From Candidatus Bathyarchaeota archaeon (GTDB lineage: Archaea > Thermoproteota > Bathyarchaeia > Bathyarchaeales > DTEX01): 39,069 nt of DNA. Made by a program: the position numbers and the translations under genes. Under the pieces are notes generated by a model. That model did no database searches. It was not told the origin of the DNA and saw nothing but the letters and a program-made list of their open reading frames with translations. How positions within the stretch are numbered: position 1 is the first letter of the stretch; every line of letters begins with the position of its first letter. Location: the NCBI GenBank assembly GCA_003601695.1, contig PIYH01000001.1:1-39069 (forward strand), written 5' to 3'. Positions 1,907-32,500 of the stretch are shown piece after piece.

Positions 1907-2210
1907 TCCTCTCTCTCACCACTTCTAGTATATCTGAGTCTCCAGGATCCCTTACGGCTAGAACCGAGATAGAGAAAGGTTTTCCACAGGCTCTACCTAG
2001 CTCTGTATTATTTCTTGGGGATACAACTAGAGGGATTCTTGAAATTTTACAGTATTTCTCCACATCTTTCCTGATACTATCTGGACAGTTAGATGCTAAT
2101 ACTACTAGCCGAACTTTCCCCGTCATAACATTTTTTATGGCTGAGTTCGCACCGAATAAAACTTTCCCCGTCTTTACAGCGACTCCCAATGCTTGATCAA
2201 GATTCACCAC
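1899..2210 (-). CDS. rpl30e: 50S ribosomal protein L30e
   Basis: 103 aa. The GKVLFGANSAIKNVMTGKVRLVVLASNCP...GRACGKPF pattern is typical of the L30e/L7Ae fold family. The GTG start at 2210 lies 14 nt inside the rpoA 3' end. Its position directly after rpoA is the conserved archaeal one. Confidence 0.9.
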   Translation of the reverse strand: MVNLDQALGVAVKTGKVLFGANSAIKNVMTGKVRLVVLASNCPDSIRKDVEKYCKISRIPLVVSPRNNTELGRACGKPFSISVLAVRDPGDSDILEVVRERNV

Positions 2211-5200
2211 TAGATTTCACCTCGCTTTTCGATGGCACAGCGGACATGTAGATGTCAACTAACCCTGTACCTATGGGAATGAATTGACCAACTATTACAT
2301 TCTCGGTAACGCCTTTAAGGTTATCGGTCTCTCCCCTAACGGCAGCTTCAACAATATTTGGAACCGTTATCTCAAATGCTGCCCGGGCGAGTACGCTTGC
2401 CTTCTCTCCGCTTACTCCATGCCTACCTATCTGTCTAACCTCGCCAGTTGCAGTCATGATATCGGCTACGAGCATTATGTGCCGAATATCCACATCAAGT
2501 CCTTGCTCTTCTAGTACTGATGACGCCTCTCTTATAAGAGCGTTTCTGGCAGCCTCTATTCCAAGAGTCTCCGCGATCTCGTGAATATTATTGGTAGTAG
2601 TCCTCGTCGGATCGACTCCTTCAATCTCAAGAACTTTTGGCAGATTTGAGCCGTCCGTCCTTATGATCCATCTTCCCTCCTCTTCAGAAACGAGTATTCT
2701 CTTGATTCCCGGAATTCCCTTAATGTGCATTGATGATATCTGACTTAGAAGCTTCTTTGGATCTACAGGTTTCTTCGAGTCAACGAAGATTTTACCGTCT
2801 TTTACCTTCACAAGATACTTTTGTTTCTCCAAAACTTCAACTAAATCGTTAATCGTTACACCCCTTTCCCTCATCTTCACGGGGTCTATCTCTATGATTA
2901 TTCCTCCAGTCTCCGGGTTGATAAAGACTTCAGAGGCAACATCTTCAACAGTCGTGTAAAGAATTCTTTGCGCGACTTTCGTTGCTTTCTCTCTACTCCC
3001 ACCGTACTCTTTATTCAAGTATATCGTCATGATTGGTGTTGACGGTTTTCTTCTCGCGTCAACTATCTCGATGAGACGCGGTAAACCTATCGTTACATTC
3101 ATTTCTCTGACGCCTGCGTAATGGAAGGTTCTAAGGGTCATCTGTGTGCCAGGTTCACCGATTGATTGAGCTGCCACAATTCCAATAGCTTCTCCAGGTT
3201 CAACGAGAGAACGCCTGTAGTGTTCAACTGTTGATCTGATCGCCAAATCCACCCCCTTTTTGCTTAGCTTCACATGTGAAAGATTAGTTTCAAGCTCATC
3301 TAGAAGTAAAGGTGTTAGCTGATCCTTCACTTTTTCTAAATGTTTCTTCATATATTCTTTGGAGGCTGGTTTTCTTCCCTCATCAATTAGCTTTATCTGA
3401 TCGATGAGCCGTGCAACATTTACCGCCTTTCCATGATCACTCTTCGCAGGATCAACTCCATCCTCTCCATATTTGAACTGTATAATATCTCCAGTTGAGT
3501 TTCTGACGGTGCCGTCATATTCAACTCTAAGGTGTTCCATAGCGTTTATTAGTCTTCTCTGCATATATCCGCTCTGCTGGGTTCGCACTGCAGTATCTAC
3601 AAGCCCCTCTCTTCCACCCATAGCGTGGAAGAAAAACTCTATGGGATCTAGTCCATCCCGATAAGATGAGTAGACGAAGCCGCGGGCTTTAGGCGAAGCA
3701 TCTCCGACTTTAAAGTGTGGGAGAGCCCTGTTCATGTAGCCTCTTGTGATTCTTTTACCGCGTACTGATTGTTGCCCCAAACATGCAGTCATCTGGCCGA
3801 TATTGATTGTAGAGCCTCTAGCTCCGCTTCTCGTCATTATCACTCCGGAGTTATTCATGCTTAGATCAGCATCTGCAATATCTCCAGCCTTAGTTCTGGC
3901 CTTAGCCAGTTCATTCATAACGTATATCTCAAATGAATCTTCAAGGGTTAATCCAGGAAGCCGTTCCAGCGTTCCTTTATGTAGCTGTTCGGTGAATTCT
4001 GAGACCTTCCTCTCAGCTAGGCTTATCACGTTTCTGATCTCCTTCTTAACCTCTGAGGAGAGATTGAGTTCCTCATAGGAGAATGAGAAGCCGCGCATGG
4101 TTATGAACCGTGTGAGAAGTCTGCTTATGCTGTTGAGAAATTTCCTTGCAGATTTTGTTCCATAATCTTTTATAAGCCTGTGTAGAATGCTTTCGGACTT
4201 CTCAGCTCCTATAGAGTTTTTATCTATTACTCCACATATTAACTCTCCATTCTTTATTACTACATATGCGTCGTATGGGCATTTCTCATGCAAGCAGACA
4301 TCACAGTTTCTGCATATGCTAGCCTTAAGAGTGTAGCTGAAATCTTTTGGAAGAAAGAGACTAAATATCTGCTTGCCAGTCCATAGCTTTTTTGGCTTCT
4401 TTATTGCCGGCTCAGGAATCTCGCCTTCATATCCGGCTGCCATTAAAAGCTTACAGACCTCCTTCTTGGTGAGAAGAGTAGATTTTCGGGTAAGGAGATA
4501 AGCAGCGGTTACGAAGTCTCTAATAGCACCTATTATTGGACCTCCGAATCTTGGAGAAAGAATCTGATCTTGAACCTGCATGAGAATTCGAGCCTCGGTC
4601 TGAGCCTCTTCGCTCTGAGGAACATGCAGGTTCATTTCGTCTCCGTCGAAATCCGCATTATATGGTGGGCAAACGCAGAGATGAAGACGAAAAGTCTTAT
4701 AGGGAAGAACTTTAACGTAATGCGCCATTATAGACATTCGGTGGAGGGATGGTTGCCTATTAAATATTACTATATCTCCATTTCGCAGATGTCTCTCGAT
4801 GACGAATCCGGGCTCTAGAGACTCAGCAATCTTCTCCCTATCGAGAACAAATTCTAACCTAATCCGCTTACCGTCTGGCCTCACGAGATATAAAGCTCCA
4901 GGATATTTTTCCGGTCCGTTGATGATTAGCTTTCTCATCTCCTCGATATTCCAAGGTGTAACTTTTTCTGGAACGGAAAGCTTCTTAGCTATTTCTAAGG
5001 GAACTCCAACTTCATTAATATCGATGTTTGGATCTGGGCTTATAACTGTGCGTGCTGAGAAATCAACGCGTTTTCCAGATAGATTTGTTCTGAATCTTCC
5101 CTCTTTTCCCTTAAGTCGTTGTGATAGAGTCTTCAAAGCTCGTCCGGAACGATGTCTGGCCGGAGGGATACCGGAGGATTCATTATTGAAATACGTTGTT

Positions 5201-6033
5201 ACATGATACTCAAGAAGCTCTGTTAAGTCTTGGATTATAAGTGTCGGAGCTCCAGCTTCCAAATTCTCTTTAAGTCTTTCATTTATTCTAATGACATCTA
5301 CAAGTTTGTGGGTAAGATCATCCTCAGATCTGATTCCAGACTCTAGGGTGATCGACGGTCTAACATAGACTGGGGGGACTGGAAGAACTTGAAGTATCAT
5401 CCATTCTGGACGAGCATGCTCGGGATCGTATCCTAAAATTCTTAGATCCTCATTAGGTATCCTCTCGAATCTCTCCCTTATCATGCTTGCGGTTAGCCGC
5501 TGTACACCTTTCTCTGTATGTTCATAGAAGATTGTAGGCTTAACGAATTCTATCTTGTATTGCTTCGCTCCGCAGTGAGGACATTGCATCGTTGATTTGG
5601 CTTGCTCAAGGAGATTATAGTGGAAGGAGTTCGGAACTTCACCGAGTAGCTTCTCGGCCTCCTCACTCCGAGCCTTAGCCTTTGATATACTCTTATCGTC
5701 GAGCAAGATCCTACCACAGTTTCTGCAGAACGCTTGAAGAAGATCATGGATGCTCTTAGTAAACTCGACATGTATTATTGGAACAGCTAGTTCGATGTGA
5801 CCAAAATGGCCTGGACACTTTGTTGCTGTATTACCGCATGTCCCGCATCTTTGCCCCGGCTCTAGAACTCCAAGTCTATTATCCATTAGACCAGAGGGTA
5901 TTACCGCTCCGTCTTCATCATATGTATCCGCGGTTTTTATTTCTGCAACTGAGAGCTTACGTATCTCTTGAGGAGAAAAGATTCCGAAGCGGATGGCATC
6001 AATAACTTTTCCATAAGATTCTTCAACAGCCAT
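2197..6033 (-). CDS. rpoA: DNA-directed RNA polymerase subunit A, unsplit (A' and A'' fused in one 1278-aa ORF)
   Basis: One uninterrupted frame holds the N-terminal Zn motif CGTCGNTATKCPGHFGHIEL, the catalytic NADFDGDEMNLH, and the A''-type AAQSIGEPGTQMTLRTFHYAGV region. The total length is about that of A' (~880 aa) plus A'' (~390 aa). Confidence 0.97.
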   Translation of the reverse strand: MAVEESYGKVIDAIRFGIFSPQEIRKLSVAEIKTADTYDEDGAVIPSGLMDNRLGVLEPGQRCGTCGNTATKCPGHFGHIELAVPIIHVEFTKSIHDLLQAFCRNCGRILLDDKSISKAKARSEEAEKLLGEVPNSFHYNLLEQAKSTMQCPHCGAKQYKIEFVKPTIFYEHTEKGVQRLTASMIRERFERIPNEDLRILGYDPEHARPEWMILQVLPVPPVYVRPSITLESGIRSEDDLTHKLVDVIRINERLKENLEAGAPTLIIQDLTELLEYHVTTYFNNESSGIPPARHRSGRALKTLSQRLKGKEGRFRTNLSGKRVDFSARTVISPDPNIDINEVGVPLEIAKKLSVPEKVTPWNIEEMRKLIINGPEKYPGALYLVRPDGKRIRLEFVLDREKIAESLEPGFVIERHLRNGDIVIFNRQPSLHRMSIMAHYVKVLPYKTFRLHLCVCPPYNADFDGDEMNLHVPQSEEAQTEARILMQVQDQILSPRFGGPIIGAIRDFVTAAYLLTRKSTLLTKKEVCKLLMAAGYEGEIPEPAIKKPKKLWTGKQIFSLFLPKDFSYTLKASICRNCDVCLHEKCPYDAYVVIKNGELICGVIDKNSIGAEKSESILHRLIKDYGTKSARKFLNSISRLLTRFITMRGFSFSYEELNLSSEVKKEIRNVISLAERKVSEFTEQLHKGTLERLPGLTLEDSFEIYVMNELAKARTKAGDIADADLSMNNSGVIMTRSGARGSTINIGQMTACLGQQSVRGKRITRGYMNRALPHFKVGDASPKARGFVYSSYRDGLDPIEFFFHAMGGREGLVDTAVRTQQSGYMQRRLINAMEHLRVEYDGTVRNSTGDIIQFKYGEDGVDPAKSDHGKAVNVARLIDQIKLIDEGRKPASKEYMKKHLEKVKDQLTPLLLDELETNLSHVKLSKKGVDLAIRSTVEHYRRSLVEPGEAIGIVAAQSIGEPGTQMTLRTFHYAGVREMNVTIGLPRLIEIVDARRKPSTPIMTIYLNKEYGGSREKATKVAQRILYTTVEDVASEVFINPETGGIIIEIDPVKMRERGVTINDLVEVLEKQKYLVKVKDGKIFVDSKKPVDPKKLLSQISSMHIKGIPGIKRILVSEEEGRWIIRTDGSNLPKVLEIEGVDPTRTTTNNIHEIAETLGIEAARNALIREASSVLEEQGLDVDIRHIMLVADIMTATGEVRQIGRHGVSGEKASVLARAAFEITVPNIVEAAVRGETDNLKGVTENVIVGQFIPIGTGLVDIYMSAVPSKSEVKSSGES

Positions 6034-10677: not shown

Positions 10678-11148
10678 CTATATTGGAAGTATTATAAGCG
10701 AGCCTTCCGATTCCGCCATTCTCCTAAGGTTTTCCAGAGTCTCATCAAGGAGTCTCGTCGGAACTTCGATCTCAAGCTTTAAGCATGCATCTTCAGATAC
10801 TGGATCTGAAACCTCAAATCCTATAATTTTCGCGTTTTTTATTCCCCTCTGAATTATATCTTTCAGGTTCGCTTTACCCACTAAAATGGCTATAATGCGA
10901 GATGTATCGACTATTTCCTCAGCTCGGATGATGGTAATCCCCATATTTCTTAAATCACTGATTGTTTTCTGCAAATTCCATTTTGAGGGGAAATCAACGA
11001 CGAGGCTGACGGGAACGAATCCATCTGAGGGATTCTCACGTTCATGAATTATGGAGATTATATTTCCGCCGTACTTTGCGATTGGTTTAAGAGCTTTAAG
11101 GAGCTGACCAGGCCTATCGGCCAACGCGATAGTTAAATCGAATTTCAA
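10678..11148 (-). CDS. ACT-domain protein (likely amino-acid-binding regulatory subunit), co-transcribed with hom
   Basis: 156 aa. Both halves show an ACT-like beta-alpha-beta-beta-alpha-beta pattern, the first beginning LTIALADRPGQLLKALKPIAKYGGNIISI. The stop lies 12 nt upstream of the hom start. Confidence 0.65.
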   Translation of the reverse strand: MKFDLTIALADRPGQLLKALKPIAKYGGNIISIIHERENPSDGFVPVSLVVDFPSKWNLQKTISDLRNMGITIIRAEEIVDTSRIIAILVGKANLKDIIQRGIKNAKIIGFEVSDPVSEDACLKLEIEVPTRLLDETLENLRRMAESEGSLIILPI

Positions 11149-11162
11149 GATTACCTCACACT

Positions 11163-12821
11163 TTAGGGAGTTCTGAAGGTTCCACCTTTATCGGCTGATT
11201 GTACAAGAAACGAGTATCTGTGCAAATATCCTTTATTTATCTTTGGCGGCTTGGGTTTCCACACTGAAAGCCTACGTCTCATTTCTTCTTTATCTATTTT
11301 TATATTAAGCGCTCTTTTGGGAACATCGATACTTATTTCATCGTCATCTTTCACCACCGCTATGGGGCCTCCAGCCGCCGCCTCAGGAGATATATGCCCT
11401 ATGCATAGACCCCTAGTTGCACCTGAGAATCTTCCGTCAGTTAATAATGCAACAGACTCAACTAGCCCCATACCAGCTATGGCGGCCGTTGGAGAGAGCA
11501 TCTCTCTCATTCCTGGACCTCCCTTAGGTCCCTCGTATCGAATAATGATTACATCTCCCTCATTGATTTCCTTGTTCAAGATAGCTTTCATGGCTTCTTC
11601 TTCAGAATTAAAGACTCTTGCTGGTCCTCTATGCGTGAGCATCTTAGGCGGAACAGCTGTAACTTTGAGTACAGCGCCGTTCGGTGCCAGGTTCCCTTTA
11701 AGCACTGCTATTCCACCTTGCTTGTGGACTGGATTGTCAAGTGGGCGTATAACTTCCAAGTCATAGACAGTCGCATCTTTAATATTCTCCCATACTGAGC
11801 GGCCAGTTACTGTCATGGCGTCTAGATGGAGAATGTTCTTTAGAATCTTCATCACTGCTGGAATTCCCCCTGCCGCTTCAAGCTCAGCTAAGTCATGCGG
11901 TCCGGCCGGTCTCATGTCACATATGTGTGGAGTTCTTCTTGCAATCTCGTCAAAGATCTCAAGAGGCAGAGAGACCTTGGCTTCATTCGCTATAGCAGTT
12001 AAGTGCAGAACAGCATTTGTTGACCCGCCAAGAGCCATATCCACGACTATAGCGTTCTCAAATGCCTCTCTAGTCAGAATATCTGAAGGTTTAAGATCTT
12101 CTTTAACCATATGAACTATTCTTTCTCCGCTTTTCTTTGCGATTCTAGCTTTCTGAGATGAAACTGCAAGCGACGATGCGCATCCTGGAAGTGAGAGACC
12201 TATAGATTCAGCTATGCAAGCCATGGTATTTGCGGTGTACATCCCGTTACATGACCCGCTTCCCGGAAAGGCTATGTCCTCTATCTTCTTCAGTTCTTCT
12301 TCAGACATTTTTCCAGCTGTTACTTCGCCTACCGCCTCGAAGATCGAAGTTACATCGACCTTTCTTCCCTTATATACCCCGGAGAGCATAGGGCCTCCGG
12401 TCACCACGATTGACGGAATGTTAAGTCTAGCCGCGGCCATCATCATTCCAGGAGTTATCTTGTCGCAGTTGGTTAGCAAAACTAATCCGTCAAATCTATT
12501 CGCTTCAACGACAACCTCGATTGAATCCGCTATTATCTCTCTTGAAGGCAGAGAGTAATGCATGCCTATATGTCCCATTGCTATTCCATCACAGAGAGCT
12601 ATCGTGTTGAACTCGAATGGAACTCCGCCTGCTGATCGAATTCCTGCCTTAATATATTTTGCGAGCCTGTTGAGGTGCATGTGGCCGGGAACAGACTCGG
12701 CGAAGCTATTAGCGATACCTATGAAGGGTTTATCAAAATCTTCATCCGTGACGCCTAGGCATTTCCATATGCTTCTTTGGGGAGCTCTTTCGACCCCGCG
12801 TTTAACGACCTCGCTTCTCAA
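11163..12821 (-). CDS. ilvD: dihydroxy-acid dehydratase
   Basis: 552 aa with the IlvD/Edd family motifs [26 protein letters not shown] and [11 protein letters not shown]. Confidence 0.95.
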
Positions 12822-13037: not shown

Positions 13038-14600
13038 TTGATTTTTGACACTACGCTAAGAGACGGCGAGCAGATGCCTGGAATTTCTTTAACCCCCGAG
13101 AAGAAACTGAAGATAGCAAGAAAACTAGATGATCTTGGAGTAAATGTGATCGAGGCTGGATTTGCAGCGGCGTCCCCAGGTGAGATGGAGGCCATAACTC
13201 TAATATCCAAAGAGAATCTTAAAGCCGAGATCTGTAGCTTTGCAAGAGGAGTGGAGAAAGATATAGATGCTGTTGCGAAGAGTGGGGCGGACTCTGTATT
13301 TCTCGTGATTCCCTCATCAGATCTTCATATAAGGCATAAACTGAGGAAGACGAGAAATGAGATCTTAGATTTAACGTCCCGAAGCATTAGATACGCAAAG
13401 GATCTTGGACTTATCGTTGAGTTTGGGCTTGAAGACTCAACCAGGGCAGATTTAGAGTTCATTAAGGAAATGATAAACGTAGCTATATCTGCTGGAGCTG
13501 ACAGAATTACACCATGCGATACGGTGGGGGTTCTAACACCTGAAAGAGCATATGAGTTCTATTCAGAACTAAAAGAAGCCTTCCCAGATGTAACTCTCGG
13601 AGTTCACAGCCATGACGACTTCGGAATGGCCGTTGCAAACTCCATAGCCGCTCTTAATGCAGGCGCGGATGAAGTTCACGTCACAGTAAATGGTCTAGGT
13701 GAGAGGGCTGGAAACGCAGCTTTAGAAGAGGTTGTAGTCTCGCTAAAGATTCTCTATAATGTTGAAACCTCTATAAAAACGGAGAAGATTTATGACGCTT
13801 CTCTTTTAATCTCGAGACTTACCAACACGTCTATTCAGCCGAATAAGGCGATAGTCGGGGAAAACGCGTTTGCGCATGAATCTGGGATACATACGCATGC
13901 TATCCTTTCAGAGCCCTCAACATATGAGCCTATATCCCCAGAGATTGTTGGAAGAAGAAGGAGACTTGCAGTTGGGAAACATGCTGGTTCACGTGGAATA
14001 AAGGCGGCTCTTGAGGAAATGAGGCTTCATCCAAACGAGGAGCAATTATCGGAGATATTCAATAGAGTAAAGGCGCTGGGGGACAAAGGAAAACTAATTA
14101 CCGACGCTGACTTGTACGCTATAGCTGAATCCGTCATGAATCTTCCGGCAACTAGCGCCATTGAACTTGAAGAATTAACCGTGGTAACCGGAAATAAGGT
14201 CACGCCGACTGCTTCTGTGAAGCTGAAGCTTAATGGTGATCATTTAACCGAAGCTGCTACTGGAATAGGACCTGTAGATGCAGCTATTCAGGCTATAAGG
14301 AGAGCTGTTTCTGCGGTTGAGCCTATTCGCCTCGAAGAGTATCACGTGAATGCAATCACGGGGGGGACAGATGCTCTTGTGGAGGTAACGGTTAGGCTTA
14401 GCAGAGGAGACCACGTTGTCACAGCTATGGGTGCTCACGGCGACATAGTGATGGCGAGTGTTGAGGCGATGTTGAAGGGAATGAATCTACTGATGAGCAA
14501 TCATATTATACATGCGAAAACGAGAAGCCTTCAAAAAGCTTATAAATATGTATCTAGTAAGCACTTTAGTGCTTCATCATCTAGGAGGACAGACAAGTGA
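13038..14600 (+). CDS. cimA: LeuA/CimA-family synthase, paralog 1; probably (R)-citramalate synthase
   Basis: 520 aa with FDTTLRDGEQ, HSHDDFGMAVAN and NGLGERAGNAALEEV, plus a LeuA-dimer-type C-terminal regulatory domain. It deviates from canonical LeuA blocks (HSHDD rather than HCHND; ITPCDTVGV rather than INIPDTVG), whereas paralog 2 keeps them. The only in-frame start after the upstream stop is TTG at 13038. The CimA assignment is an inference. Confidence 0.8.
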   Translation: MIFDTTLRDGEQMPGISLTPEKKLKIARKLDDLGVNVIEAGFAAASPGEMEAITLISKENLKAEICSFARGVEKDIDAVAKSGADSVFLVIPSSDLHIRHKLRKTRNEILDLTSRSIRYAKDLGLIVEFGLEDSTRADLEFIKEMINVAISAGADRITPCDTVGVLTPERAYEFYSELKEAFPDVTLGVHSHDDFGMAVANSIAALNAGADEVHVTVNGLGERAGNAALEEVVVSLKILYNVETSIKTEKIYDASLLISRLTNTSIQPNKAIVGENAFAHESGIHTHAILSEPSTYEPISPEIVGRRRRLAVGKHAGSRGIKAALEEMRLHPNEEQLSEIFNRVKALGDKGKLITDADLYAIAESVMNLPATSAIELEELTVVTGNKVTPTASVKLKLNGDHLTEAATGIGPVDAAIQAIRRAVSAVEPIRLEEYHVNAITGGTDALVEVTVRLSRGDHVVTAMGAHGDIVMASVEAMLKGMNLLMSNHIIHAKTRSLQKAYKYVSSKHFSASSSRRTDK

Positions 14601-20799: not shown

Positions 20800-20832
20800 A
20801 TCGTTTCATTTTGAGAATTGAAGTGTGAAATT

Positions 20833-22350
20833 ATGGATTATATCCGCATATTTGATACAACCCTAAGAGATGGGGAACAGACGCCGGGCGTCTCATTCAC
20901 TCCCGAAGAGAAGCTCGAGATAGCTCAGCAACTCGATAGGCTTGGAGTGGACACGATCGAAGTTGGTTTTCCATCAGCGTCTAAAGGGGAGAAACTAGCC
21001 TTCAGAGAAATAATCAACGCTGGGTTGAAGGCTGAGATCTGTGCTTTAGCCCGTACAATAAAGAGTGATATTGACGCGGCTTTGAAATGCGACGTTCCAT
21101 ACATTCACACTTTCATATCGACATCTGATGTTCACATAAAGCATGCTCTAGGAATGACTAGAGAGCAAGTTTTGGAAGCCGCTGTTAATTCGGTCGAATA
21201 TATAAAAGACCATGGAGCTACATGTGAATTCTCACCTATGGATGCCACTAGAACTGAGATGGATTTTCTGAAGAGGGTGTGTAAGGCAGCTGAGGAGGCT
21301 GGAGCTGACAGAATAAATATTCCAGACACTGTTGGAATAATGACCCCGCATGGAATGGAGAAGATTATTCGGGAGCTAAAAACCGTACTGAAAACTCCTT
21401 TAAGCGTGCATTGCCACAATGATTTCGGCTTAGCCGTTGCGAACTCGCTGGCTGGAGTTGTCGGGGGAGCATGTCAGATCCACGTTACCGTAAATGGAAT
21501 CGGGGAGAGAGCTGGAAACGCGGCTTTAGAGGAAGTTGTGATGGGCCTTCATATGCTCTATAATAAAAGAACAGGCATTAATACAAGCTTACTCTATATA
21601 ACATCTAAGCTTATATCTCGATTAACGGGGATAATAATTCAGCCAAACAAGGCAATTGTGGGAGAGAATGCCTTCTCACATGAGTCAGGCATACATACGA
21701 GGGGAGTTACCGTTGAGCCTCTCACCTTCGAACCCTTCAGTCCAGAGATAGTCGGTAGGAGAAGGAAGCTTCAGGCCGGAAAGCTCGCTGGGAGGCATGG
21801 TATAAGAGCTGAACTTAAGGAAGCCGGCCTTCATCCGACTGAGGCTCAACTTAAAGAAATTGTTCAGCGGGTTAAGGATCTCGGGGACAAAGGCAAAACC
21901 GTCACCGACGCAGATCTGCTTGCGATAGCTAGGACTGTTATTGGAGAAGTAACCGAGGAAAAGATTGTGGAGTTAACGGATTTCGCTGTTACAACTGGCA
22001 TAAGAGTGATACCAACGGCTTCAGTTAAGCTCGTAATCGATGGGAAAGAGTATATAGCTGCCGAGACTGGTGTGGGACCTATCGACGCCGCGATAAAGGC
22101 GATTCAGAAAATAACTGATAGGCTTGCAAACGTTAGATTGACTGAGTATCGTCTTGAGGCTTTAACTGGAGGATCGGATGCCGTAGCTGAAGTAGTAATA
22201 AAAGTTGAGGATGACAAGGGAAATGTCGTCTCGGCTAGAGGGGCTAGGGAGGACATAGTTATGGCTAGCGTTGAAGCGATGATAAATGGAATAAATAAGA
22301 TACTTCTAAAGAAGAGAAGAGAGAAGGATCTATCCAAATCTTTCTATTAG
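20833..22350 (+). CDS. leuA: 2-isopropylmalate synthase (paralog 2, canonical LeuA-like)
   Basis: The ORF track starts at TTG 20818. ATG at 20833 gives MDYIRIFDTTLRDGEQ, the usual N-terminus. It has the canonical blocks HTFISTSDVHIKH, INIPDTVGIMTP, HCHNDFGLAVANSLAG and NGIGERAGNAALEEVVMGL, plus the C-terminal LeuA-dimer domain. Confidence 0.9.
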   Translation: MDYIRIFDTTLRDGEQTPGVSFTPEEKLEIAQQLDRLGVDTIEVGFPSASKGEKLAFREIINAGLKAEICALARTIKSDIDAALKCDVPYIHTFISTSDVHIKHALGMTREQVLEAAVNSVEYIKDHGATCEFSPMDATRTEMDFLKRVCKAAEEAGADRINIPDTVGIMTPHGMEKIIRELKTVLKTPLSVHCHNDFGLAVANSLAGVVGGACQIHVTVNGIGERAGNAALEEVVMGLHMLYNKRTGINTSLLYITSKLISRLTGIIIQPNKAIVGENAFSHESGIHTRGVTVEPLTFEPFSPEIVGRRRKLQAGKLAGRHGIRAELKEAGLHPTEAQLKEIVQRVKDLGDKGKTVTDADLLAIARTVIGEVTEEKIVELTDFAVTTGIRVIPTASVKLVIDGKEYIAAETGVGPIDAAIKAIQKITDRLANVRLTEYRLEALTGGSDAVAEVVIKVEDDKGNVVSARGAREDIVMASVEAMINGINKILLKKRREKDLSKSFY

Positions 22351-25462: not shown

Positions 25463-28213
25463 TTATCCAGCTATCTTCCTCTGTAGGAAGACGATGGACA
25501 TTATGGCTGCGACCGCCGCTATGAGCGACAGGATAACGGCGAGGTACACGGCCGTTGAGATTCCGCCTACCGCTGACTGGGCTGCTGAAGCTGCTTCTGA
25601 AGCATCCTTAGCGGCTGATTGAGCCTCTGAGACCGCCGTTGAGAGACTATCGATGTCTCCCTCAACCTTGTCTAGAGAGCTGCTTAAGTCGCTGACTAAA
25701 TCCTTTAGATTCTTTACGCTGTCACTTAGGCTACTTATATCCGATGCTTGACCCTCAACGAGGTCGCTTAGGTCTGAGACGGTCTTGGATAAGTCCGCTA
25801 GGTCGCTCTTCAGTCTAGATACGTCTTCGCTCAGCGTGGAGAGCGTCGGCTTCTCAACTACCTCAAATGTGCCCTCAACGAGCACGTCCATTATGGTTGC
25901 GTTCCAGACCCACGTGCCGAGCTCAGCGTCTGATGGAAGTAGGTAGGTAGCCGTTCCAGTGTAGTAGCTTCCCTTCTTCGTCTCAAGATCTAAGTCGGTT
26001 ATCTCAGTCTTGAATCCGCTTGGAGTGTACAGGTTTATCACTTGATCAAGCACTTCGAATTCGCACTCAGCGAAGAACATGACGGTGTCTCCCGGCATAT
26101 ACTCGGCCGCTCCGGTGTAAACTTTTACATACGGCTTGATAACTTCGAATGTTGCCTGCGCATATAAGCCGTTAGCATCCGTGGCATTTATGTAGTAAGT
26201 CCCGAGCGCAAAATCTACCGGAAGTTTAAATGTTCCTTCGAAGCTACCTGAAGCATCCGTCTTCTCCTTTTCAAAGCCATCTGCTGCTGTGATATACTCC
26301 CATAGATCATATTCCTTGGAGACTTCTCCCTCATCCGTCACATTGTAAATCTTCAATGTTAGGGCTGTACCCTCCTCCGCTGTGAAGTATCTGAGCTTGA
26401 TCGATACTGAGGTATCTGTAGGCGCACTTGAAGGATCAACCGTTATCTCCGTGATTGCGGTTACATCGAATGTCTCCTCAGCCTTTATTCCAGTCTCATC
26501 CATGACCGTTATCGTGCATATGCCAGCTGGAACTGTTGGTATGTAGGCATACTTGTCTATTTCACCTGTACTAGAAGTCTTATTGTCTCCGACCAGTACC
26601 AGAAGCTTTCCGTCTATCGTAGCGTTGAATTCTGTGTCGGCGCTGAATCCGCTGGCAACTATGTGGATCTTCGTCCCGGTTGGGCCGGATTCTGGAAGTA
26701 TCGTCATCGTGGTTATGTAAGATTCAAATGTTGTTGAGGCAGATAGGTCATATGAATCCGTAGCCGTAATTGTGTATGTTCCTGGAACATCTGGAGCGGT
26801 TAATGTAGCTGTGAATTCACCGTTCTCCGTGGTATTCACTTTTGCATAGGACAACATTGTTCCGAAGTCTATCGTGACAACGACATCCTTAATGGCGGTG
26901 AAGTTGTATCCCTTAACCGTTATAGTTTCTCCTGGAGAGCCTACAGCTGGAGTAACCTCTATTGCAGTTTTACCAGTCACCTCGAATGACGCGGTTGCCC
27001 AGTAATTTTCATCGCTTGCATTCACTGTATAAGTGTCTTTATCCAGTGTTGGAACAACGAATTTTCCGGTGAATATTCCGCTACTATTAGCCTGAATCGC
27101 CTCCACCGTCTTGCATGTCACGCCGCCCATTTCTATCGTTACGTTACCATTCGCGGTGAAGCCCTCACCAGTTATATCCACAACCTTTCCTGAAGGACCT
27201 TCAGTGGGGCTCAACGTTATCATCGGCTTTAATGTCACCGTTGCCTCTGCCTCGTTTCCATCCTCATCCACAGCCTTTATCGTGTAGTCTCCATAGACGA
27301 CATTGCCGCTATCGATGGTTTTCGGAACCTCGAATGTGCAATTGAAGCTTCCCTTATCATCCGTCTCAACGGTTTCTGGAGAAGTTGTCAAGGTAGTTAA
27401 AACTGTGCTGTCATTAAGCATTGTAAGCGTTATTTCCTGATTGGCGGCGAAGCCCGTACCCGTAACCGTGACGGTCTTTTCTGGGAGGGTAGCGGTCGGT
27501 GAAAGAGTGATCTCAGCTGTCAATGTATAAGTCTCTATGAATAGAGTTTCGCCGGCTTCACGGTCATAAACTAGGATGCTGTATGTTCCTGCAGGCGAGT
27601 CGGGTGTCTTCACGGTGAAGCTGAATGATCTGTCAGCCTTCGCGTAGGCCTCGCCTATCTTGTTCGCAAGATTCTCCCAGTAAACCTCAACTAAGCCGCC
27701 TGGCGTGGTGGCCCAGCCGCCTACAAGTATCTCGTCTCCTTTATGACCAGACTTTGGATATATGCTGGCTACAACATCGAATGGTTCAGAGTCCCATTCA
27801 CCATCATCAACATATCCATTATTATTTTTGTCCTGCCATGCAACGAAATAGTATACGGTGCCCGGCGGTAGGCTTGGCACCGTAACATCAACTTTGTATT
27901 CAGTAGTGGTACCTTCAATCGGAGACTCAACAGTGGCTAAAAGTTCACCCTGCATTCCATATCCATATCCTTCTCCAGCGACATCTGGAACCTGATCCGC
28001 CTTACACCAATAAATCTTAACTGGATATGTCGAGTTTATTACTTGAGTTGTATTACCGCTGACAGTTACACTGACCCCCATGGGTCCTTCACTTAGCGAT
28101 GTTTTATAAATTAGATTGGGATCTTTTGATGCTGCTACAGGAGGCACTGGGATCGCCAGAATCGAAACTATCAGAAGAGTCGTTATCAGAGATGAAAGTA
28201 TCTTCTTATTCAA
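25463..28213 (-). CDS. large secreted, C-terminally membrane-anchored surface (glyco)protein; candidate S-layer protein
   Basis: 916 aa with a TTG start and GGAGAG upstream. It has an N-terminal signal peptide (KKILSSLITTLLIVSILAIPVPPVAAS). At least five ~85-95-aa Ig-like repeats follow the pattern I.L/V.P..G..G..V.V.G.GF.A (IPT/TIG-like). I count 14 N-x-S/T sequons. A Ser/Asp/Leu-rich coiled-coil stalk (LSEDVSRLKSDLADLSKTVSDLSDLVEG...) is followed by a C-terminal TM (AVYLAVILSLIAAVAAIMSIVFL) and a basic tail. Confidence 0.85.
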   Translation of the reverse strand: MNKKILSSLITTLLIVSILAIPVPPVAASKDPNLIYKTSLSEGPMGVSVTVSGNTTQVINSTYPVKIYWCKADQVPDVAGEGYGYGMQGELLATVESPIEGTTTEYKVDVTVPSLPPGTVYYFVAWQDKNNNGYVDDGEWDSEPFDVVASIYPKSGHKGDEILVGGWATTPGGLVEVYWENLANKIGEAYAKADRSFSFTVKTPDSPAGTYSILVYDREAGETLFIETYTLTAEITLSPTATLPEKTVTVTGTGFAANQEITLTMLNDSTVLTTLTTSPETVETDDKGSFNCTFEVPKTIDSGNVVYGDYTIKAVDEDGNEAEATVTLKPMITLSPTEGPSGKVVDITGEGFTANGNVTIEMGGVTCKTVEAIQANSSGIFTGKFVVPTLDKDTYTVNASDENYWATASFEVTGKTAIEVTPAVGSPGETITVKGYNFTAIKDVVVTIDFGTMLSYAKVNTTENGEFTATLTAPDVPGTYTITATDSYDLSASTTFESYITTMTILPESGPTGTKIHIVASGFSADTEFNATIDGKLLVLVGDNKTSSTGEIDKYAYIPTVPAGICTITVMDETGIKAEETFDVTAITEITVDPSSAPTDTSVSIKLRYFTAEEGTALTLKIYNVTDEGEVSKEYDLWEYITAADGFEKEKTDASGSFEGTFKLPVDFALGTYYINATDANGLYAQATFEVIKPYVKVYTGAAEYMPGDTVMFFAECEFEVLDQVINLYTPSGFKTEITDLDLETKKGSYYTGTATYLLPSDAELGTWVWNATIMDVLVEGTFEVVEKPTLSTLSEDVSRLKSDLADLSKTVSDLSDLVEGQASDISSLSDSVKNLKDLVSDLSSSLDKVEGDIDSLSTAVSEAQSAAKDASEAASAAQSAVGGISTAVYLAVILSLIAAVAAIMSIVFLQRKIAG

Positions 28214-28263
28214 TAGTATTCTCTCCTCTTTTCTATTTTATTAGTAATCTTTGCCTTGGCAAA

Positions 28264-28278
28264 CATTTATATTTTATG
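28264..28278 (-). promoter_or_regulatory. candidate TATA box/promoter of the surface-protein gene
   Basis: The minus strand reads cATAAAATATAAATg, 51-65 nt upstream of the TTG start. This would leave a ~30-nt leader containing GAGGAG. A small inverted repeat tttgcc-tt-ggcaaa lies between the TATA element and the start. Confidence 0.35.
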
Positions 28279-28289
28279 TAAACAATCCC

Positions 28290-28331
28290 TAATGTATATG
28301 AGAAAATGTGTACATTTTCTCATATACATTA
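28290..28331. repeat. perfect 42-bp palindrome (20-bp arms, 2-nt spacer)
   Basis: Read directly as TAATGTATATGAGAAAATGT-GT-ACATTTTCTCATATACATTA. I verified base by base that the arms are exact reverse complements. It lies 10 nt downstream of the stop of gene 28341..28928 and about 12 nt upstream of the candidate TATA box of the surface-protein gene. Confidence 0.9.
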
Positions 28332-28340
28332 ATCTTTAAA

Positions 28341-28928
28341 TCACGGAGAGTTCTTGACATTTAAACCCTTAAAGTCTAAGATTATCATCCCTTTCATATG
28401 ATCACTTCTAGTTGTTTCGTATCCCATGCCATGAAAGGCTCCCTCTACATATTTTAGAAGAGCTTCTGTTCCTTCATTCGTGAGCACGGATGAGAAGCAT
28501 CTCAGCTTGATCAAGTCCCCTTCATTCTTAACCTCAACTTCATTTAGATCCCATCTCGACGCTTCAAGGAACTCTTTGAAAGCTTCTACCGGATCCTCAA
28601 ATTTTTCCTTCAAATATTTCCCGTGTAACTTTCCACTCTCATACCATCTCTCCTTGAGGCTTCGGCTCTTATCCTTAGAGGCAACCTTAATGAAGAAATT
28701 GAAGACATTTAGCGGAACAAATGTTCCACCTAGGATTCTATTCGCCTTTGTAACTGCAAGCAAGTCCGCCGCCTCCTTTAATCTATAGCCAAGCCTTTTC
28801 GCTAAGAGAGCAAGCTCTATAGACTCTTCAACGAAGACCCCTAAAGATTTGCCCTCGCTTCTTGCGACTTCCATAGCCTCTCTTATGAGATTCTCCGAGA
28901 CGTATACGAGCCGCCTACTCTTCGACAT
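28341..28928 (-). CDS. hypothetical protein, paralog A: RHH-like N-terminus plus ~140-aa C-terminal domain (possibly V4R-like ligand-binding)
   Basis: 195 aa. The N-terminus RRLVYVSENLIREAMEVARSEGKSLGVFVEESIELALLA has a strand-helix-helix (CopG/Arc-like) pattern. The C-terminal part (WYESGKLHGKYL...LIKLRCFSS...YVEGAFHGMGYE...GMIILDFKG) is collinear with the neighbouring paralog. Confidence 0.7.
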   Translation of the reverse strand: MSKSRRLVYVSENLIREAMEVARSEGKSLGVFVEESIELALLAKRLGYRLKEAADLLAVTKANRILGGTFVPLNVFNFFIKVASKDKSRSLKERWYESGKLHGKYLKEKFEDPVEAFKEFLEASRWDLNEVEVKNEGDLIKLRCFSSVLTNEGTEALLKYVEGAFHGMGYETTRSDHMKGMIILDFKGLNVKNSP

Positions 28929-29508
28929 TCAAATCCTTCCTGAGGGCTTTAATCCTTATAGACCCTGCTGAGACATCCTTATTCGACACTTTGTAGCCGA
29001 AGGTCTCCAATGCGCCTTCAAGAAAGGCCAAATATAAGATAGCGTAGGACTCTGGGATTCTGGGGCTTACTATCCGAATGTAGACCGCTTCCTCATTCTC
29101 CTCAATAATCAGTTCTGGAATATTCCATGTATAAGCCTTCAGACTTTTCTTGAATGCTTCGAAGGCATCCTCAGGTTCTATGGTCATATATCTTTTAGCA
29201 AGCCATATTCCGGCTTCGAACCATTTTTTCAAAGCTTCCTCCCGAGCATTTTTATATGCTATGTCGGCCATATCATACCATAAGGCTTCAGGTCCAAGTA
29301 TGAATCCGTCTTTCTTAGCCTTTTTGGGAATCCAGCTCTCCTCAAAGAGCTTCCTAAGATTAACTCCAGCCTCCTCGGCTTGAATCGCGAGCTCAAATAT
29401 TTCATTCACCATGCTGTAAAGGGTATAGCCTCGCTGCTTCGCCATCTCAATCAGTTTATTAGCTAGATCCTCCCGGGCGAAGAGGGTCTTTCTCTTAACC
29501 AAGGACAA
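28915..29508 (-). CDS. hypothetical protein, paralog B: RHH-like N-terminus plus ~140-aa C-terminal domain
   Basis: 197 aa. The N-terminus is RKTLFAREDLANKLIEMAKQRGYTLYSMVNEIFELAIQA. The C-terminal part is WFEAGIWLAKRYM...AFEAFKKSL..W...VYIRIVSPRIP...FLEGALETFGYK...GSIRIKAL. Its 3' end overlaps the start of paralog A by 14 nt. Confidence 0.7.
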   Translation of the reverse strand: MSLVKRKTLFAREDLANKLIEMAKQRGYTLYSMVNEIFELAIQAEEAGVNLRKLFEESWIPKKAKKDGFILGPEALWYDMADIAYKNAREEALKKWFEAGIWLAKRYMTIEPEDAFEAFKKSLKAYTWNIPELIIEENEEAVYIRIVSPRIPESYAILYLAFLEGALETFGYKVSNKDVSAGSIRIKALRKDLNVEE

Positions 29509-29637
29509 TAAGCAACCCCATTTTTAAGAAAAGCTAAGAGGCTAATTAGTGTTATCTAGCCTTTACGTATATCTATGATATAAACCTTAAATTCAGCTGT
29601 AGTAATACTCATTTATACTTTTAGGAAGTATGAAGAG

Positions 29638-29805
29638 ATGCCCAGTATCAGGGATGCAGGCTCACCAAGTATTCCCTACATTAAGGAACTTGAGAAAGTA
29701 GCGCTAAAGATTCTTAAGGAGAATCCAGACTATAAAGAAAGGTTAAAGGAGATACTTGAGGAATATGCCAGCCGATACTCCAGGGAATATAATATTAGAA
29801 CTTGA
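29638..29805 (+). CDS. possible small ORF (55 aa) preceding and overlapping the ATPase gene
   Basis: My translation is MPSIRDAGSPSIPYIKELEKVALKILKENPDYKERLKEILEEYASRYSREYNIRT*. A TATA-like atttatactttt lies ~20 nt upstream, so the transcript could be leaderless. It overlaps the ATPase ATG (29765) by 41 nt in another frame. It is below the ORF-track cutoff. Confidence 0.25.
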   Translation: MPSIRDAGSPSIPYIKELEKVALKILKENPDYKERLKEILEEYASRYSREYNIRT

Positions 29806-31261
29806 GAATATAGGTTGCCTAAGAAGGCTGCGCCTAGAGTTTAAGCCCGGGATTAACATAATTAAGGCGCCGAATGCCTCGGGAAAGACAACTATAGTCA
29901 GAAGTTTTTCAAGCATGTTCTCGGACAAAATTCCACCGTCGCACATCCTAGCATTAGATGAACTAAAAGGAAGAATACGAGTATACTATGGTGAAAAAAT
30001 ATATGAGAAAGTCTTCAGAAGAACCCCTTCGGGTCATGTAATAGTTCAGGGAGACATGCTTCCCTTCGCTGATCCAAGAGCATTTGATGCATGCGTCGCG
30101 CTAGCTGAGACGGGTATAGTGCATAGAATCACTGGGGGAAACGTAATATTCCGTAAATACCTCGAGAACTTATCCTATGGAAACTATTACAGCGCTCTGA
30201 TCGAAGCTTCACAAGAGCTCGTAAACGAGTATGGGAGGAAACTGGCTAGTCCAAGCTTTAGAAACTTTGAGATCCTTCCTCTCTTACTGACTGAGCTAAC
30301 TGATCTCCACATGAGACGAGACGAGATTAGACAGAAAATTGAGAATTCTAAAAAGAATCATGAGGATAAACTCCGGAAGATAAAGCTCAAAATAACCGAG
30401 AAGAACTCCGCATTGTCTCAAGAGAAAGTTCTTCTATCACAGTTATACAGAGACCTCTCCTTTGAGAAGGAAAGAGAAAGAAGCCTTCAAGAACTATTAA
30501 GTATGGCTGGAGAATCATCAAAGATTGTCTCCAGCATAAAGATAAGCATAGCCTCCTCTCAAGATAGACAAACAAGACTTAAGAAGGAGATCAAGACTCG
30601 CAGATGCCTACTTAAAGAACTCAGGAGAGAAGTTGAAGAGCTTAGAGAAAAACTAAGAAGAGAGGAGAAAGGTCCCCTAGAAATTAAAGGTCTCGAAGAG
30701 AAACTAGAGAAAGTTAATAAGATGATTATACTGAAGGAGGAAGAGATTCAGCGGGCTGAACGCTTTCCTCCCGATGATGCAGAATATCCGGGGAAACTCA
30801 TCGTAGATGTCCGCTCCGAGATTCTGAGAAAGATAGAGTGGCTTGAAATGGTTATGGGATATTTCCAAGAGAAATATATGCGGTGCATGACGAGCGCGAG
30901 GCGTAGATTCAACGAGAACGTTACAAGAGCTTTCCATGAGCTTAATCTCGGAGGATTCGAGAATGTTTTTTTAGATCAAGATTTCTCGCTTCAGGTTATG
31001 CGTGAAGGAAATATTCGCCAGCCTATTGAGACGTTGAGCGCATCCGAGAAACTAACGATAAGTCTGGTGTTGATGCTAGCTGCAAAGGAAACTTTTCTGC
31101 CGGATTTTCCCCTCTTCATAGTTGACGAGTTAACTCTCAGTTATGATCCGGAGAGATTCTGGAGGCTTATGGAATATGTTAAAAGACGAGTTCCATATCT
31201 TATTGTTACGTCACTTTCGTCCAGCCTTTCCGATACGCCGAAGGTAATTCATAAACCATAA
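29756..31261 (+). CDS. SMC/Rad50/RecF-like ABC ATPase with a short central coiled coil (uncharacterised family)
   Basis: 501 aa. Walker A is APNASGKT (nt 29867-29890). A ~160-aa heptad-rich K/E/R/L segment spans roughly residues 180-340. The ABC signature is LSASEK (nt 31034 onward) and Walker B is LFIVDE (D at 31124). I see no hinge domain and no CxxC zinc hook. The start is TTG 29756 or ATG 29765, with AGGAG at 29747-29751. Confidence 0.8.
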   Translation: MRNMPADTPGNIILELENIGCLRRLRLEFKPGINIIKAPNASGKTTIVRSFSSMFSDKIPPSHILALDELKGRIRVYYGEKIYEKVFRRTPSGHVIVQGDMLPFADPRAFDACVALAETGIVHRITGGNVIFRKYLENLSYGNYYSALIEASQELVNEYGRKLASPSFRNFEILPLLLTELTDLHMRRDEIRQKIENSKKNHEDKLRKIKLKITEKNSALSQEKVLLSQLYRDLSFEKERERSLQELLSMAGESSKIVSSIKISIASSQDRQTRLKKEIKTRRCLLKELRREVEELREKLRREEKGPLEIKGLEEKLEKVNKMIILKEEEIQRAERFPPDDAEYPGKLIVDVRSEILRKIEWLEMVMGYFQEKYMRCMTSARRRFNENVTRAFHELNLGGFENVFLDQDFSLQVMREGNIRQPIETLSASEKLTISLVLMLAAKETFLPDFPLFIVDELTLSYDPERFWRLMEYVKRRVPYLIVTSLSSSLSDTPKVIHKP

Positions 31262-31271
31262 AGTAGGAAAC

Positions 31272-31694
31272 TTGAAAGTGATGAGGCGAGAGGTAGTGAA
31301 TGAAAACTCTTGGAAACAGTCGTTCGAGAGTATTTATCGAGAACTTGAGGTGGCAAACAGAAAGAAGAATTCGCTAGATGATCTTTTAGCTAGGAATAGA
31401 GTGTCAAAGCCGACATATGAGTACTTATTGAGAAACCTGGATGAGGAAATAAGCAAATTAGAGGCTCATCTAAAATCATTGACGAAGAGTATGAGTAAAA
31501 GAATAAATGAGTTGCAAAAGCAGATAAAACTCTTCGAAGTTTTCTTTGCTAATTTTGAGCTTCTTCATATAGGTTTTGAAGTAGATGAGGAAACATATGC
31601 TCGGCAGAGAGAGATAATGATAAAGGGGATGGTGGCATCAAAGAAAGAGATGGAAGAGATAGAGAATGCCTTAAAGAAGATAGGCGGCAAATAG
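31272..31694 (+). CDS. small coiled-coil protein (about 137-140 aa), loosely CdvA-coiled-coil-like
   Basis: It starts 10-20 nt after the ATPase stop (TTG 31272, GTG 31278 or ATG 31281). It is almost entirely helical with heptad repeats. Two segments (RNRVSKPTYEYLLRNLDEEI and GFEVDEETYARQREIMIKGM) recall the 'G-I-S-x-x-x-Y-x-x-L' pattern I associate with CdvA-type coiled coils. There is no PRC-barrel domain. Confidence 0.6.
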   Translation: MKVMRREVVNENSWKQSFESIYRELEVANRKKNSLDDLLARNRVSKPTYEYLLRNLDEEISKLEAHLKSLTKSMSKRINELQKQIKLFEVFFANFELLHIGFEVDEETYARQREIMIKGMVASKKEMEEIENALKKIGGK

Positions 31695-31846
31695 AAATTC
31701 TACTTTGAAATCAAACGTCACCCATTTGATGCCTAAAACTTTATCCCAAAACGTCACATTTAATTATCAGTTTACGTTCATAAGCTGAAAATATTAGATC
31801 AGATAATGCTTAAATATTCCAGTAAAGCTCTAGAAGACTCGTCTAG

Positions 31847-32500
31847 GTGAAGACTTTGAGCGGAGAAAGAGAGGATCAACGTTCAGAGAAGCTTGAGGAA
31901 TGGACGCCACGGACAAGACTAGGCCGTCTTGTCTTAGAGGGTAAAATCTCCTCCATCGAAGAGATCTTCGCAGAGGGTATGAGAATACGTGAGCCTGAAA
32001 TAGTTGATATGCTTCTTCCAGATCTACAGGAGGAGGTTATTCACATAGGTATCGTTCAGAAGCAGACAGACGCTGGAGAAAAAACGAGATTTAAAGCGAT
32101 AGTAGTCGTGGGGAACGGAAATGGATATGTAGGCATAGGCTCTGGAAAAGCTGATCAGGTTAGGACGACCATAGAGAAAGCGGCAAGCGAGGCTAGGCTC
32201 AACGTAACCATGGTCCGTAGGGGATGCGGTAGCTGGGAATGTGGCTGTGGACAGCCACACTCTCTGCCATTTGAGACCATTGGAAAATCTGGATCGGTTG
32301 TGATAAAGATTATTCCTGGACCTAGAGGCTTAGGGCTTGTTGCAAGCGAAGTTGCGAAAGTTATACTGAGACTTGCGGGGATAAAGGATTGCTGGACTAA
32401 AAGCTATGGTCAAACAAGAACGGTGCCATCCTTCGCCTATGCTGTGTATAATGCTCTTAAGAGAACCTATGAGATAGTTACTCCCATGGATTGGGTGTGA
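31847..32500 (+). CDS. rps5: 30S ribosomal protein S5 (uS5)
   Basis: 217 aa with a GTG start. It contains EEWTPRTRLGRLVLEGKISSIEEI, FKAIVVVGNGNGYVGIGSGKA and GPRGLGLVAS. Confidence 0.95.
   Translation: MKTLSGEREDQRSEKLEEWTPRTRLGRLVLEGKISSIEEIFAEGMRIREPEIVDMLLPDLQEEVIHIGIVQKQTDAGEKTRFKAIVVVGNGNGYVGIGSGKADQVRTTIEKAASEARLNVTMVRRGCGSWECGCGQPHSLPFETIGKSGSVVIKIIPGPRGLGLVASEVAKVILRLAGIKDCWTKSYGQTRTVPSFAYAVYNALKRTYEIVTPMDWV

Follow-up and report, generated by a model that had tools for sequence, protein, structure and literature searches.

The 39,069-nucleotide window analysed here comes from the core chromosome of a Bathyarchaeia archaeon and contains, between positions 28290 and 31694, two conserved gene units. 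The first (unit 1) is a compact and apparently undescribed three-gene operon encoding a 55-aa micro-protein, a short ATPase of the archaea-specific SMC-related protein (ASRP) family and a CdvA-like hairpin protein. The second (unit 2) is a translationally coupled pair of paralogous genes, here given the working names parB and parA. A preliminary description, made from the letters of the window, had joined these genes and a long palindrome into one undescribed five-part module. The palindrome and all the open reading frames (ORFs) listed then are present (28341-28928 and 28915-29508 on the minus strand; 29638-29805, 29756-31261 and 31272-31694 on the plus strand). The idea of a compact undescribed module holds for the ATPase, its coiled-coil partner and the 55-aa ORF, whereas the paralogs and the palindrome are separate from it. 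We propose, with moderate confidence, that the two units are independent, being neighbours only in one Bathyarchaeia sub-clade, and that they encode an envelope-linked SMC-like complex of three subunits and a pair of surface-gene regulators.

Unit 1 is a conserved operon

Unit 1 and the region upstream of it are made up as follows.

29638..29805, plus strand: gene 1, 55-aa helical micro-protein (tblastn, motif, 41-nt overlap)
29765..31261, plus strand: gene 2, ASRP-type ATPase; mechanical ORF 29756-31261 (hidden Markov model, fold)
31281..31694, plus strand: gene 3, CdvA-like hairpin protein; mechanical ORF 31272-31694 (PF18822)
29509..29637, no strand: divergent intergenic region (six-locus alignment, sequence)

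Synteny was followed in nine contexts obtained by exact protein look-up and in fifteen GTDB species representatives (the locus designations beginning with L are ours). The order small ORF, ATPase, CdvA-like gene is kept wherever the contig permits, down to 51% ATPase identity, and the triad was found in the window and in L001-L009, L012-L023 and L025. A CdvA-like homolog directly follows the ATPase gene in 21 of the 22 loci that extend far enough. In the sole exception (L024, 3422-4930), which reflects either joint decay of the operon genes or faulty assembly, the ATPase is broken into pieces of 329 and 124 aa and no CdvA-like gene is present. Literature searches on CdvA with SMC or Bathyarchaeota gave no description of the linkage between the ATPase and the CdvA-like gene.

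At 50% identity or more, the ATPase family is apparently confined to Bathyarchaeia, and every label among the closest database proteins is Bathyarchaeota or Bathyarchaeia. Two relatives carry Asgard labels (P0069 and P0139): a partial match to the ATPase (48% identity, Jordarchaeaceae) and a relative of the unit 2 paralogs (63%, Freyarchaeota). These labels could be due to mis-binning or lateral transfer.

The neighbourhood of the triad is rich in envelope functions. S-layer-like, CARDB or SlaA-like genes, or operons of NTP_transferase, epimerase and DegT genes, flank it in six contexts; such a nucleotide-sugar operon often stands immediately 3' of the triad, and sugar-nucleotide families prevail among the 87 neighbouring ORFs of 11 further loci. 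In the window, a UDP-GlcNAc 2-epimerase gene, a Wzx-like gene and the gene of a 916-aa surface protein lie immediately 5' of the studied region. Snf7 and Vps4 families do not occur near the triad in the six annotated contexts, nor do they figure in the 25 commonest Pfam families of the 87 ORFs from the 11 loci. The unit had been thought to interrupt the spc operon in front of rps5. However, the triad adjoins rps5 only in the window and its two closest relatives, and in other Bathyarchaeia (L012, L020) rps5 likewise heads its ribosomal cluster behind unrelated genes; the apparently truncated spc operon is therefore not due to this insertion.

A short, hook-less ASRP ATPase

No characterised ortholog had been recognised for these genes, which proved wrong: the ATPase matches ASRP (NCBIfam NF045487) with an E-value of 1.9e-79 and 268 bits, far ahead of the runner-up Rad50 (2e-11), and the 140-aa protein matches the Pfam CdvA-like family above its gathering score. 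Both thus belong to named families, but their pairing was not found described. The ASRP score is below the curated NCBI equivalog cutoff of 300, a shortfall that fits a shorter coiled coil because the match consists of two stretches spanning both halves of the head; relatives score 235-429 bits (orthologs 235-292, one 623-aa relative 429). The mechanical ORF begins at TTG 29756; the likely start, ATG 29765, yields a protein of 498 aa, the length of P0001, to which it is 97% identical.

The N-terminal Walker A (NASGKT), the C-terminal signature (TLSASE) and the Walker B DE are invariant in 22 aligned orthologs. Neither a CxxC zinc hook nor a conserved arm cysteine occurs in these 22 proteins; the apex reads MAGE / TDDS. 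A loop of the form ERFPPDDxxYPG (residues ~333-345) is also conserved. The AlphaFold2 (AF2) model, with a mean predicted local distance difference test score (pLDDT) of 88.6, has a bipartite head and an antiparallel coiled coil of ~77 residues per arm with a 4-residue apex, helices 171-247 and 252-332 folding back on one another. Foldseek placed SMC, Rad50 and condensin heads at the top (E down to 5e-14) and also matched JetC and LmuB heads, which bears out the earlier view of an SMC/Rad50-type ATPase with a coiled-coil insertion. We conclude that this protein is a short, hook-less member of ASRP, a family that is named but poorly understood. ASRP was defined in 2022 and includes the Sulfolobus coalescin ClsN and haloarchaeal Sph1-4 (Yoshinaga et al. 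2022; PMC9389158); the vast majority of its members carry a CxxC zinc hook, and no consensus gene neighbours were reported in that study (PMC9389158).

Distant ASRPs (25-29% identity, 633-664 aa), seen in metagenome-assembled genomes of Aenigmatarchaeota (L027, 2866-6130) and Thermoproteota (L028, 6693-10034), have a different upstream pair, namely an AAA-family ATPase of ~255-267 aa and an unrelated 113-125-aa ORF without family. A profile of the 55-aa protein reached only E 0.04 with the small ORF of L028, which is not significant. The AAA ATPase and small ORF may be another ASRP partner set.

An SMC-like ATPase could also belong to a defence system of the Lamassu, Wadjet or PARIS kind, or act in repair like Rad50, and matches of the ATPase to mad3 (3e-14), LmuB (1e-12) and PtuA in PADLOC, as well as the JetC and LmuB heads found by Foldseek, go in that direction. 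We give this explanation very little credence. The PADLOC matches are 65 orders of magnitude weaker than that to ASRP and of a generic ATPase level only; none was obtained for the other four proteins, nor any for the partners LmuA/C, JetA/B/D, AriB, GajB or PtuB. No effector, nuclease, kleisin or Mre11 was found within ±6-8 kb of the triad in more than 20 loci, and effector-type Pfam families are missing from the annotated neighbours and from the 25 commonest families of neighbouring ORFs. Moreover, the gene is single-copy, with stable synteny in a core chromosomal context, and a scan of viral contigs for relatives came back empty. The earlier statement that no nuclease, kleisin or known partner is present stands, and a known defence system is rejected.

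The two small partner proteins

The optional 55-codon ORF at 29638 is, on sequence grounds, a real gene. It is kept across ~20 loci (tblastn E to 1e-19), its orthologs of 56-60 aa have the common motif (V/I)PYIxExExxAL...LKExLExYAxRYxRE, and substitutions fall mainly at third codon positions. Its last 41 nt overlap the start of the ATPase gene, and the same overlap is present in L001-L009 and in every locus examined. The protein has no match among Pfam, NCBIfam or PADLOC families.

The third protein (~137 aa; the mechanical ORF from TTG 31272 gives 140 aa) consists solely of a CdvA-like helical hairpin. With PF18822, the CdvA-like coiled-coil family, it scores 47.2 bits, above the gathering score of 30, and the same match is precomputed for its orthologs in annotated contexts. 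Of the 235 positions of the NCBIfam CdvA profile (NF041007), only 60-192 are matched, with a score of 38.7 where the cutoff is 350. The hairpin spans both ends of the protein, which has neither a PRC barrel nor a C-terminal ESCRT-III-binding (E3B) tail. A word-index homolog search gave 3 matches, and an exhaustive profile search was required, which returned 247 cluster representatives; in nearly all of them the domain is N-terminal, usually followed by a low-complexity tail. All 45 sampled relatives match PF18822 and none of the 45 has a PRC barrel. These relatives match what the ESCRT survey of Makarova et al. (2024) describes as "additional CdvA-like proteins" of Bathyarchaea and places away from cdv loci, the window protein being a tail-less form.

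A second CdvA-like paralog of 219 aa was noticed in L008 (9619-10278, minus strand; the 10898-11281 region of L014), convergent with the triad and ~0.7 kb downstream of it. It has the hairpin followed by a ~95-aa acidic tail rich in Ser, Pro and Glu, and it also fits the "additional CdvA-like proteins" of the survey.

Unit 2 pairs two paralogs with a surface-protein gene

The second unit and its surroundings contain the following features.

28915..29508, minus strand: gene 1, parB, 197 aa (AF2, Foldseek)
28341..28928, minus strand: gene 2, parA, 195 aa (paralog of parB, 14-nt overlap)
28290..28331, no strand: 42-bp perfect palindrome (arm complementarity, shuffles)
28265..28284, minus strand: conserved promoter of the surface-protein gene (six-locus comparison)
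25463..28213, minus strand: S-layer-like surface protein, 916 aa (Pfam TIG and MG2, translation)

The two minus-strand proteins are indeed paralogous, as first thought (26% identity, E 1e-18). parB and then parA always occur in that order with a 14-nt overlap, also in L008, L010, L011 and L038, and form a translationally coupled pair. No Pfam domain occurs in any of the 252 homolog clusters that make up their family. The AF2 model of parB (pLDDT 87) begins with an extended basic segment and helices 13-25 and 30-46, continues with a helical linker and ends in an alpha/beta domain. With this model Foldseek retrieved TPC6, Bet3/Trs33, H-NOX, BcsD and the sensor domains of DmpR/MopR (E 1e-3 to 3e-2).

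The pair adjoins the triad only in a sub-clade with at least 67% ATPase identity, the two being divergent and adjacent in the window, L008/L014, L012, L013, L026 and L038. In L007, a 705-aa surface-protein gene stands between them; in L010 and L011 the pair has no ATPase within 8 kb; and the pair and the triad are apart in L001-L006, L009-L011 and L016-L025. By contrast, a large surface-protein gene lies directly 3' of the pair on the same strand in eight of nine contexts (window, L007, L008, L010, L012, L013, L026, L038), and 1.4 kb away in the ninth (L011). The 916-aa surface protein of the window has a signal peptide, immunoglobulin-like TIG/MG2 repeats, a coiled-coil stalk and a C-terminal transmembrane anchor. 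This pair is thus a widespread, uncharacterised Bathyarchaeia family tied to surface-protein genes and a candidate cell-envelope regulator.

The palindrome extends a conserved promoter element

The palindrome (28290-28331) has 20-nt arms with 100% complementarity around a 2-nt spacer. It is long and unique in the window, as had been claimed, and was matched by 0 of 100 shuffles. It starts 10 nt past the parA stop and lies directly upstream of the promoter that is conserved in front of the surface-protein gene. A conserved TGT-N2-ACA element forms its centre (28307-28314; minus-strand reading TGTACACA). A second such element, TGTTTACA (28277-28284), abuts a TATA-like box, TAAAATATAAAT (28265-28276), and this combination of TGT-N2-ACA and TATA-like box, TTGTTnACAnAAAnTnTAAATG, is nearly invariant in six loci. 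In the same six loci the distal element is invariant, ~32 nt upstream of the proximal one and always equally far from the TATA box, and it is on this distal element that the palindrome is centred. Only ~10-nt inner arms are left in L038, the closest relative covering the site, and elsewhere only the 8-bp core; the palindrome is thus an element conserved upstream of the promoter that has been extended symmetrically in this lineage only.

As RNA, the palindrome is predicted to form a hairpin of -26 kcal/mol (z -5.7), so that it could also be the 3' hairpin of the parBA transcript. No Rfam match at E <= 0.1 was obtained across 27900-32000, the palindrome included, and a structured RNA was therefore rejected there. 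A regulon motif was likewise rejected, as neither the half-site nor the core recurs as an exact 14-mer in the window or in 39 loci.

The divergent intergenic region has signals of its own: two sequences are conserved in the six-locus alignment, AAACCTTAAATT (29582-29593), which resembles a TFB recognition element with TATA box and belongs to the unit 1 operon, and the palindrome CTAATTAG (29542-29549), which adjoins the parB promoter. The tatatc-tat-gatata repeat (29570-29584) to which attention had been drawn as a promoter feature is unconserved, even in the closest relative covering it.

The preliminary description had likened the five parts to a segregation system, in which ribbon-helix-helix (RHH) adaptors would bind the palindrome as a centromere and recruit the ATPase with its coiled-coil partner. 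The divergent, adjacent arrangement in the six settings listed above and the statistically non-random palindrome speak for such a module. It is nevertheless very improbable, and largely refuted by synteny. The ATPase, CdvA-like and 55-aa genes do co-occur, but the five parts are not syntenic beyond the sub-clade, and in distant genomes the pair leaves the ATPase and travels with the surface-protein gene. The palindrome is mostly lost in the closest covering relative and elsewhere is an 8-bp core inside a promoter, and the RHH assignment of the paralogs has no sequence support. No partition system is known to use an SMC-type NTPase.

Proposed functions

From gene conservation, linkage and overlaps, family and fold assignments and motif conservation, we infer the following physical interactions, DNA binding and cellular roles. 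Unit 1 would form an SMC-like complex of three subunits, in which two ATPase protomers engage their heads on ATP. Their short arms (about 12-16 nm) end without hinge or zinc hook, and higher-order assembly would therefore rest on the two small subunits. The CdvA-like hairpin may dock on the coiled coil or neck and link the ATPase to a polymer or membrane, as happens between the Mre11 helix-loop-helix and Rad50 and between kleisin helices and SMC necks. Most likely, the complex is a scaffold that is linked to the cell envelope and serves shape or division, not DNA repair or defence. We favour this role because of the persistent context of S-layer and nucleotide-sugar genes, the shape role of Sph3-RdfA, the CdvA-type partner and the hook-less arms. 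Unit 2 would be a regulator that works as a heterodimer, may sense a ligand and combines a small DNA-binding module at the N-terminus with a Bet3/V4R-like domain; its target would be the adjacent surface-protein gene, whose promoter has the two conserved TGT-N2-ACA elements; the giant palindrome would be a recent symmetric expansion of the distal one.

As the main alternative, unit 1 may organise or segregate chromosomes as a coalescin- or condensin-like DNA bridger, with the CdvA-like protein as a DNA-binding or filament-forming non-SMC subunit and an incidental envelope context. This is possible but, in our opinion, doubtful. ASRP membership speaks for it, ClsN, the best-studied ASRP, organising the chromosome into compartments in Sulfolobus (PMC9389158, PMC11946384), as do the basic ATPase (pI 9.1) and the predicted involvement of the CdvA-like domain in both chromosome segregation and division, CdvA being reported to form filaments that contain DNA (Moriscot 2011, as cited in PMC5906684). 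However, no zinc hook or hinge joins two arms here, while ClsN and most ASRPs have a CxxC motif; the arms are very short, the CdvA-like partner is acidic in most orthologs, the linkage to glycan and S-layer genes is persistent, and haloarchaeal ASRPs affect cell shape (PMC10869688).

Several points weigh against our two-unit proposal, beginning with what is known of ClsN and of CdvA filaments. The function of unit 1 and all the interactions, localisations and phenotypes put forward for these proteins are predictions. The kept neighbourhood may reflect inherited synteny among related lineages instead of functional coupling. In the ATPase orthologs the usual H-loop histidine is replaced (VIVTSL) and the signature is LSASE rather than LSGGE, so that ATP turnover may be slow or atypical. 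With a pI ranging from 4.9 to 8.9 among orthologs, the CdvA-like protein offers no consistent clue to a DNA or a membrane ligand. Concerning unit 2, the Bet3/V4R resemblance is a fold-level match only (E ~1e-3, Foldseek probability up to 1.0, TM score 0.4-0.5), and the paralogs have no sequence match to V4R (PF02830) or any other Pfam family. No sequence model supports RHH for them either: a single one of 31 family members reached an RHH Pfam family, at E 0.09, and a profile search against the PDB gave a sub-threshold match to the RHH protein ORF56 of pRN1 (E 0.56). The predicted secondary-structure pattern of the N-terminus and its conserved basic segment are nonetheless compatible with RHH. 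Finally, the promoter region of the pair itself does not contain TGT-N2-ACA, so the pair is linked to the motif by adjacency alone.

The CdvA-like hairpin domain recruits ESCRT-III in Cdv-type division and resembles the steadiness box of ESCRT-I. An unlikely but consequential extension of the envelope-scaffold proposal is that all three proteins of unit 1 make up a hitherto unrecognised archaeal cytoskeletal or division machine, in which the SMC-type ATPase drives or regulates the assembly of a coiled-coil polymer, of the CdvA or ESCRT-I steadiness-box type, at the envelope. If true, it would provide a mechanistic link between the SMC superfamily and the Cdv/ESCRT division proteins in TACK relatives of the ancestors of eukaryotes. 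More generally, with a bare CdvA-like hairpin as one partner of this ASRP, the complex points to possible cooperation between SMC-like ATPases and coiled-coil proteins of the Cdv type. Within the SMC superfamily no branch is less understood than the ASRPs, for which phenotypes are known only from Sph3 (rod shape) and ClsN (chromosome compartments). Bathyarchaeia now offer a partner set that is class-wide and translationally coupled, and with it a concrete three-protein complex open to reconstitution and testing.

Genomic setting

The studied region is preceded by rpoB, rpoA, an ilv/leu operon, the UDP-GlcNAc 2-epimerase gene, the gene of the Wzx-like flippase and that of the 916-aa surface protein, and is followed by rps5-rpl30-rpl15-secY. 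An integrated or mobile element, raised earlier as a possible source of the locus, was rejected: the GC content is uniform, core genes flank both sides and the check for tRNA genes found none.

Some other features of the window were recorded. A single ORF of 1278 aa (2197-6033, minus strand) bears RNA polymerase Rpb1 domains 1-5, and RpoA'/RpoA'' is therefore unsplit here; in most archaea these subunits are split. The ilvB-ilvN-ilvC-leuCD-leuB cluster is bracketed by two paralogs resembling LeuA or homocitrate synthase (HMGL-like and LeuA_dimer domains; 13038-14600 and 20818-22350, plus strand). Several genes have apparent TTG starts (25463-28213, 28915-29508, 29756, 31272 and others, with the surface protein, parB, secY and leuA among them), each preceded by a GGAG-type motif resembling a Shine-Dalgarno sequence; for the surface protein, the start region TTGAATAAG is kept in five loci.

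Comparison with known systems

Unit 1 has the SMC-type head fold and a coiled-coil arm in common with Rad50-Mre11 and SMC-kleisin complexes, and its small helical partner is a plausible ligand of the coiled coil or neck. It differs in having no nuclease, kleisin, hinge or hook, and the partner families are unrelated. The C-terminal fold of the unit 2 paralogs matches that of V4R, Bet3 (TRAPP) and H-NOX sensors (e.g. DmpR/MopR), and their pairing recalls the heterodimers of the Bet3 family; unlike V4R/Bet3 sensors, they have no PF02830 sequence match and carry a short RHH-like N-terminal module instead of a helix-turn-helix or AAA+ domain. With CdvA, the crenarchaeal and thaumarchaeal recruiter of ESCRT-III, the third protein of unit 1 shares the PF18822 helical-hairpin coiled coil, but it is devoid of the PRC barrel, the C-terminal ESCRT-III-binding tail and the Glu/Pro-rich tail, and its gene is fixed 3' of the ASRP gene and not beside cdvB or cdvC.

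The ATPase has the general layout of ASRP, an archaea-restricted family and its best hidden Markov model match, with an N-terminal Walker A, a C-terminal LS-x-SE signature and Walker B, and an antiparallel coiled coil between them. It is ~100-160 residues shorter (498 versus about 600-660 aa), lacks the CxxC zinc hook and has fixed partners, while none emerged as consensus in the ASRP study. The only haloarchaeal copy compared, on Haloferax pHV3 (L039, 15302-17290), has no GK[ST] at the Walker A site and DS at the Walker B DE site in a pairwise alignment; its Walker A region thus looks degenerate, whereas that of the window ATPase is intact. Some Sph proteins may therefore be ATPase-dead.

The closest parallel is with Sph3-RdfA of Haloferax volcanii. 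Rod shape in Haloferax requires both Sph3, which is an ASRP, and its neighbour RdfA, and haloarchaeal RdfA and Sph genes are adjacent in 78-84% (Schiller et al. 2024; PMC10869688). Either system combines an ASRP with a small lineage-specific partner gene, in a class-wide pairing and in a region rich in surface genes; RdfA (PF21811, 213 aa) sits upstream of its ASRP. PF21811 has no match in the window proteins and BLASTP of RdfA against the 55-aa and CdvA-like proteins was negative, so that homology of either small protein to RdfA is rejected for lack of similarity. Unit 1 is thus an ASRP with a lineage-specific partner set of its own, which parallels Sph3-RdfA in haloarchaea.

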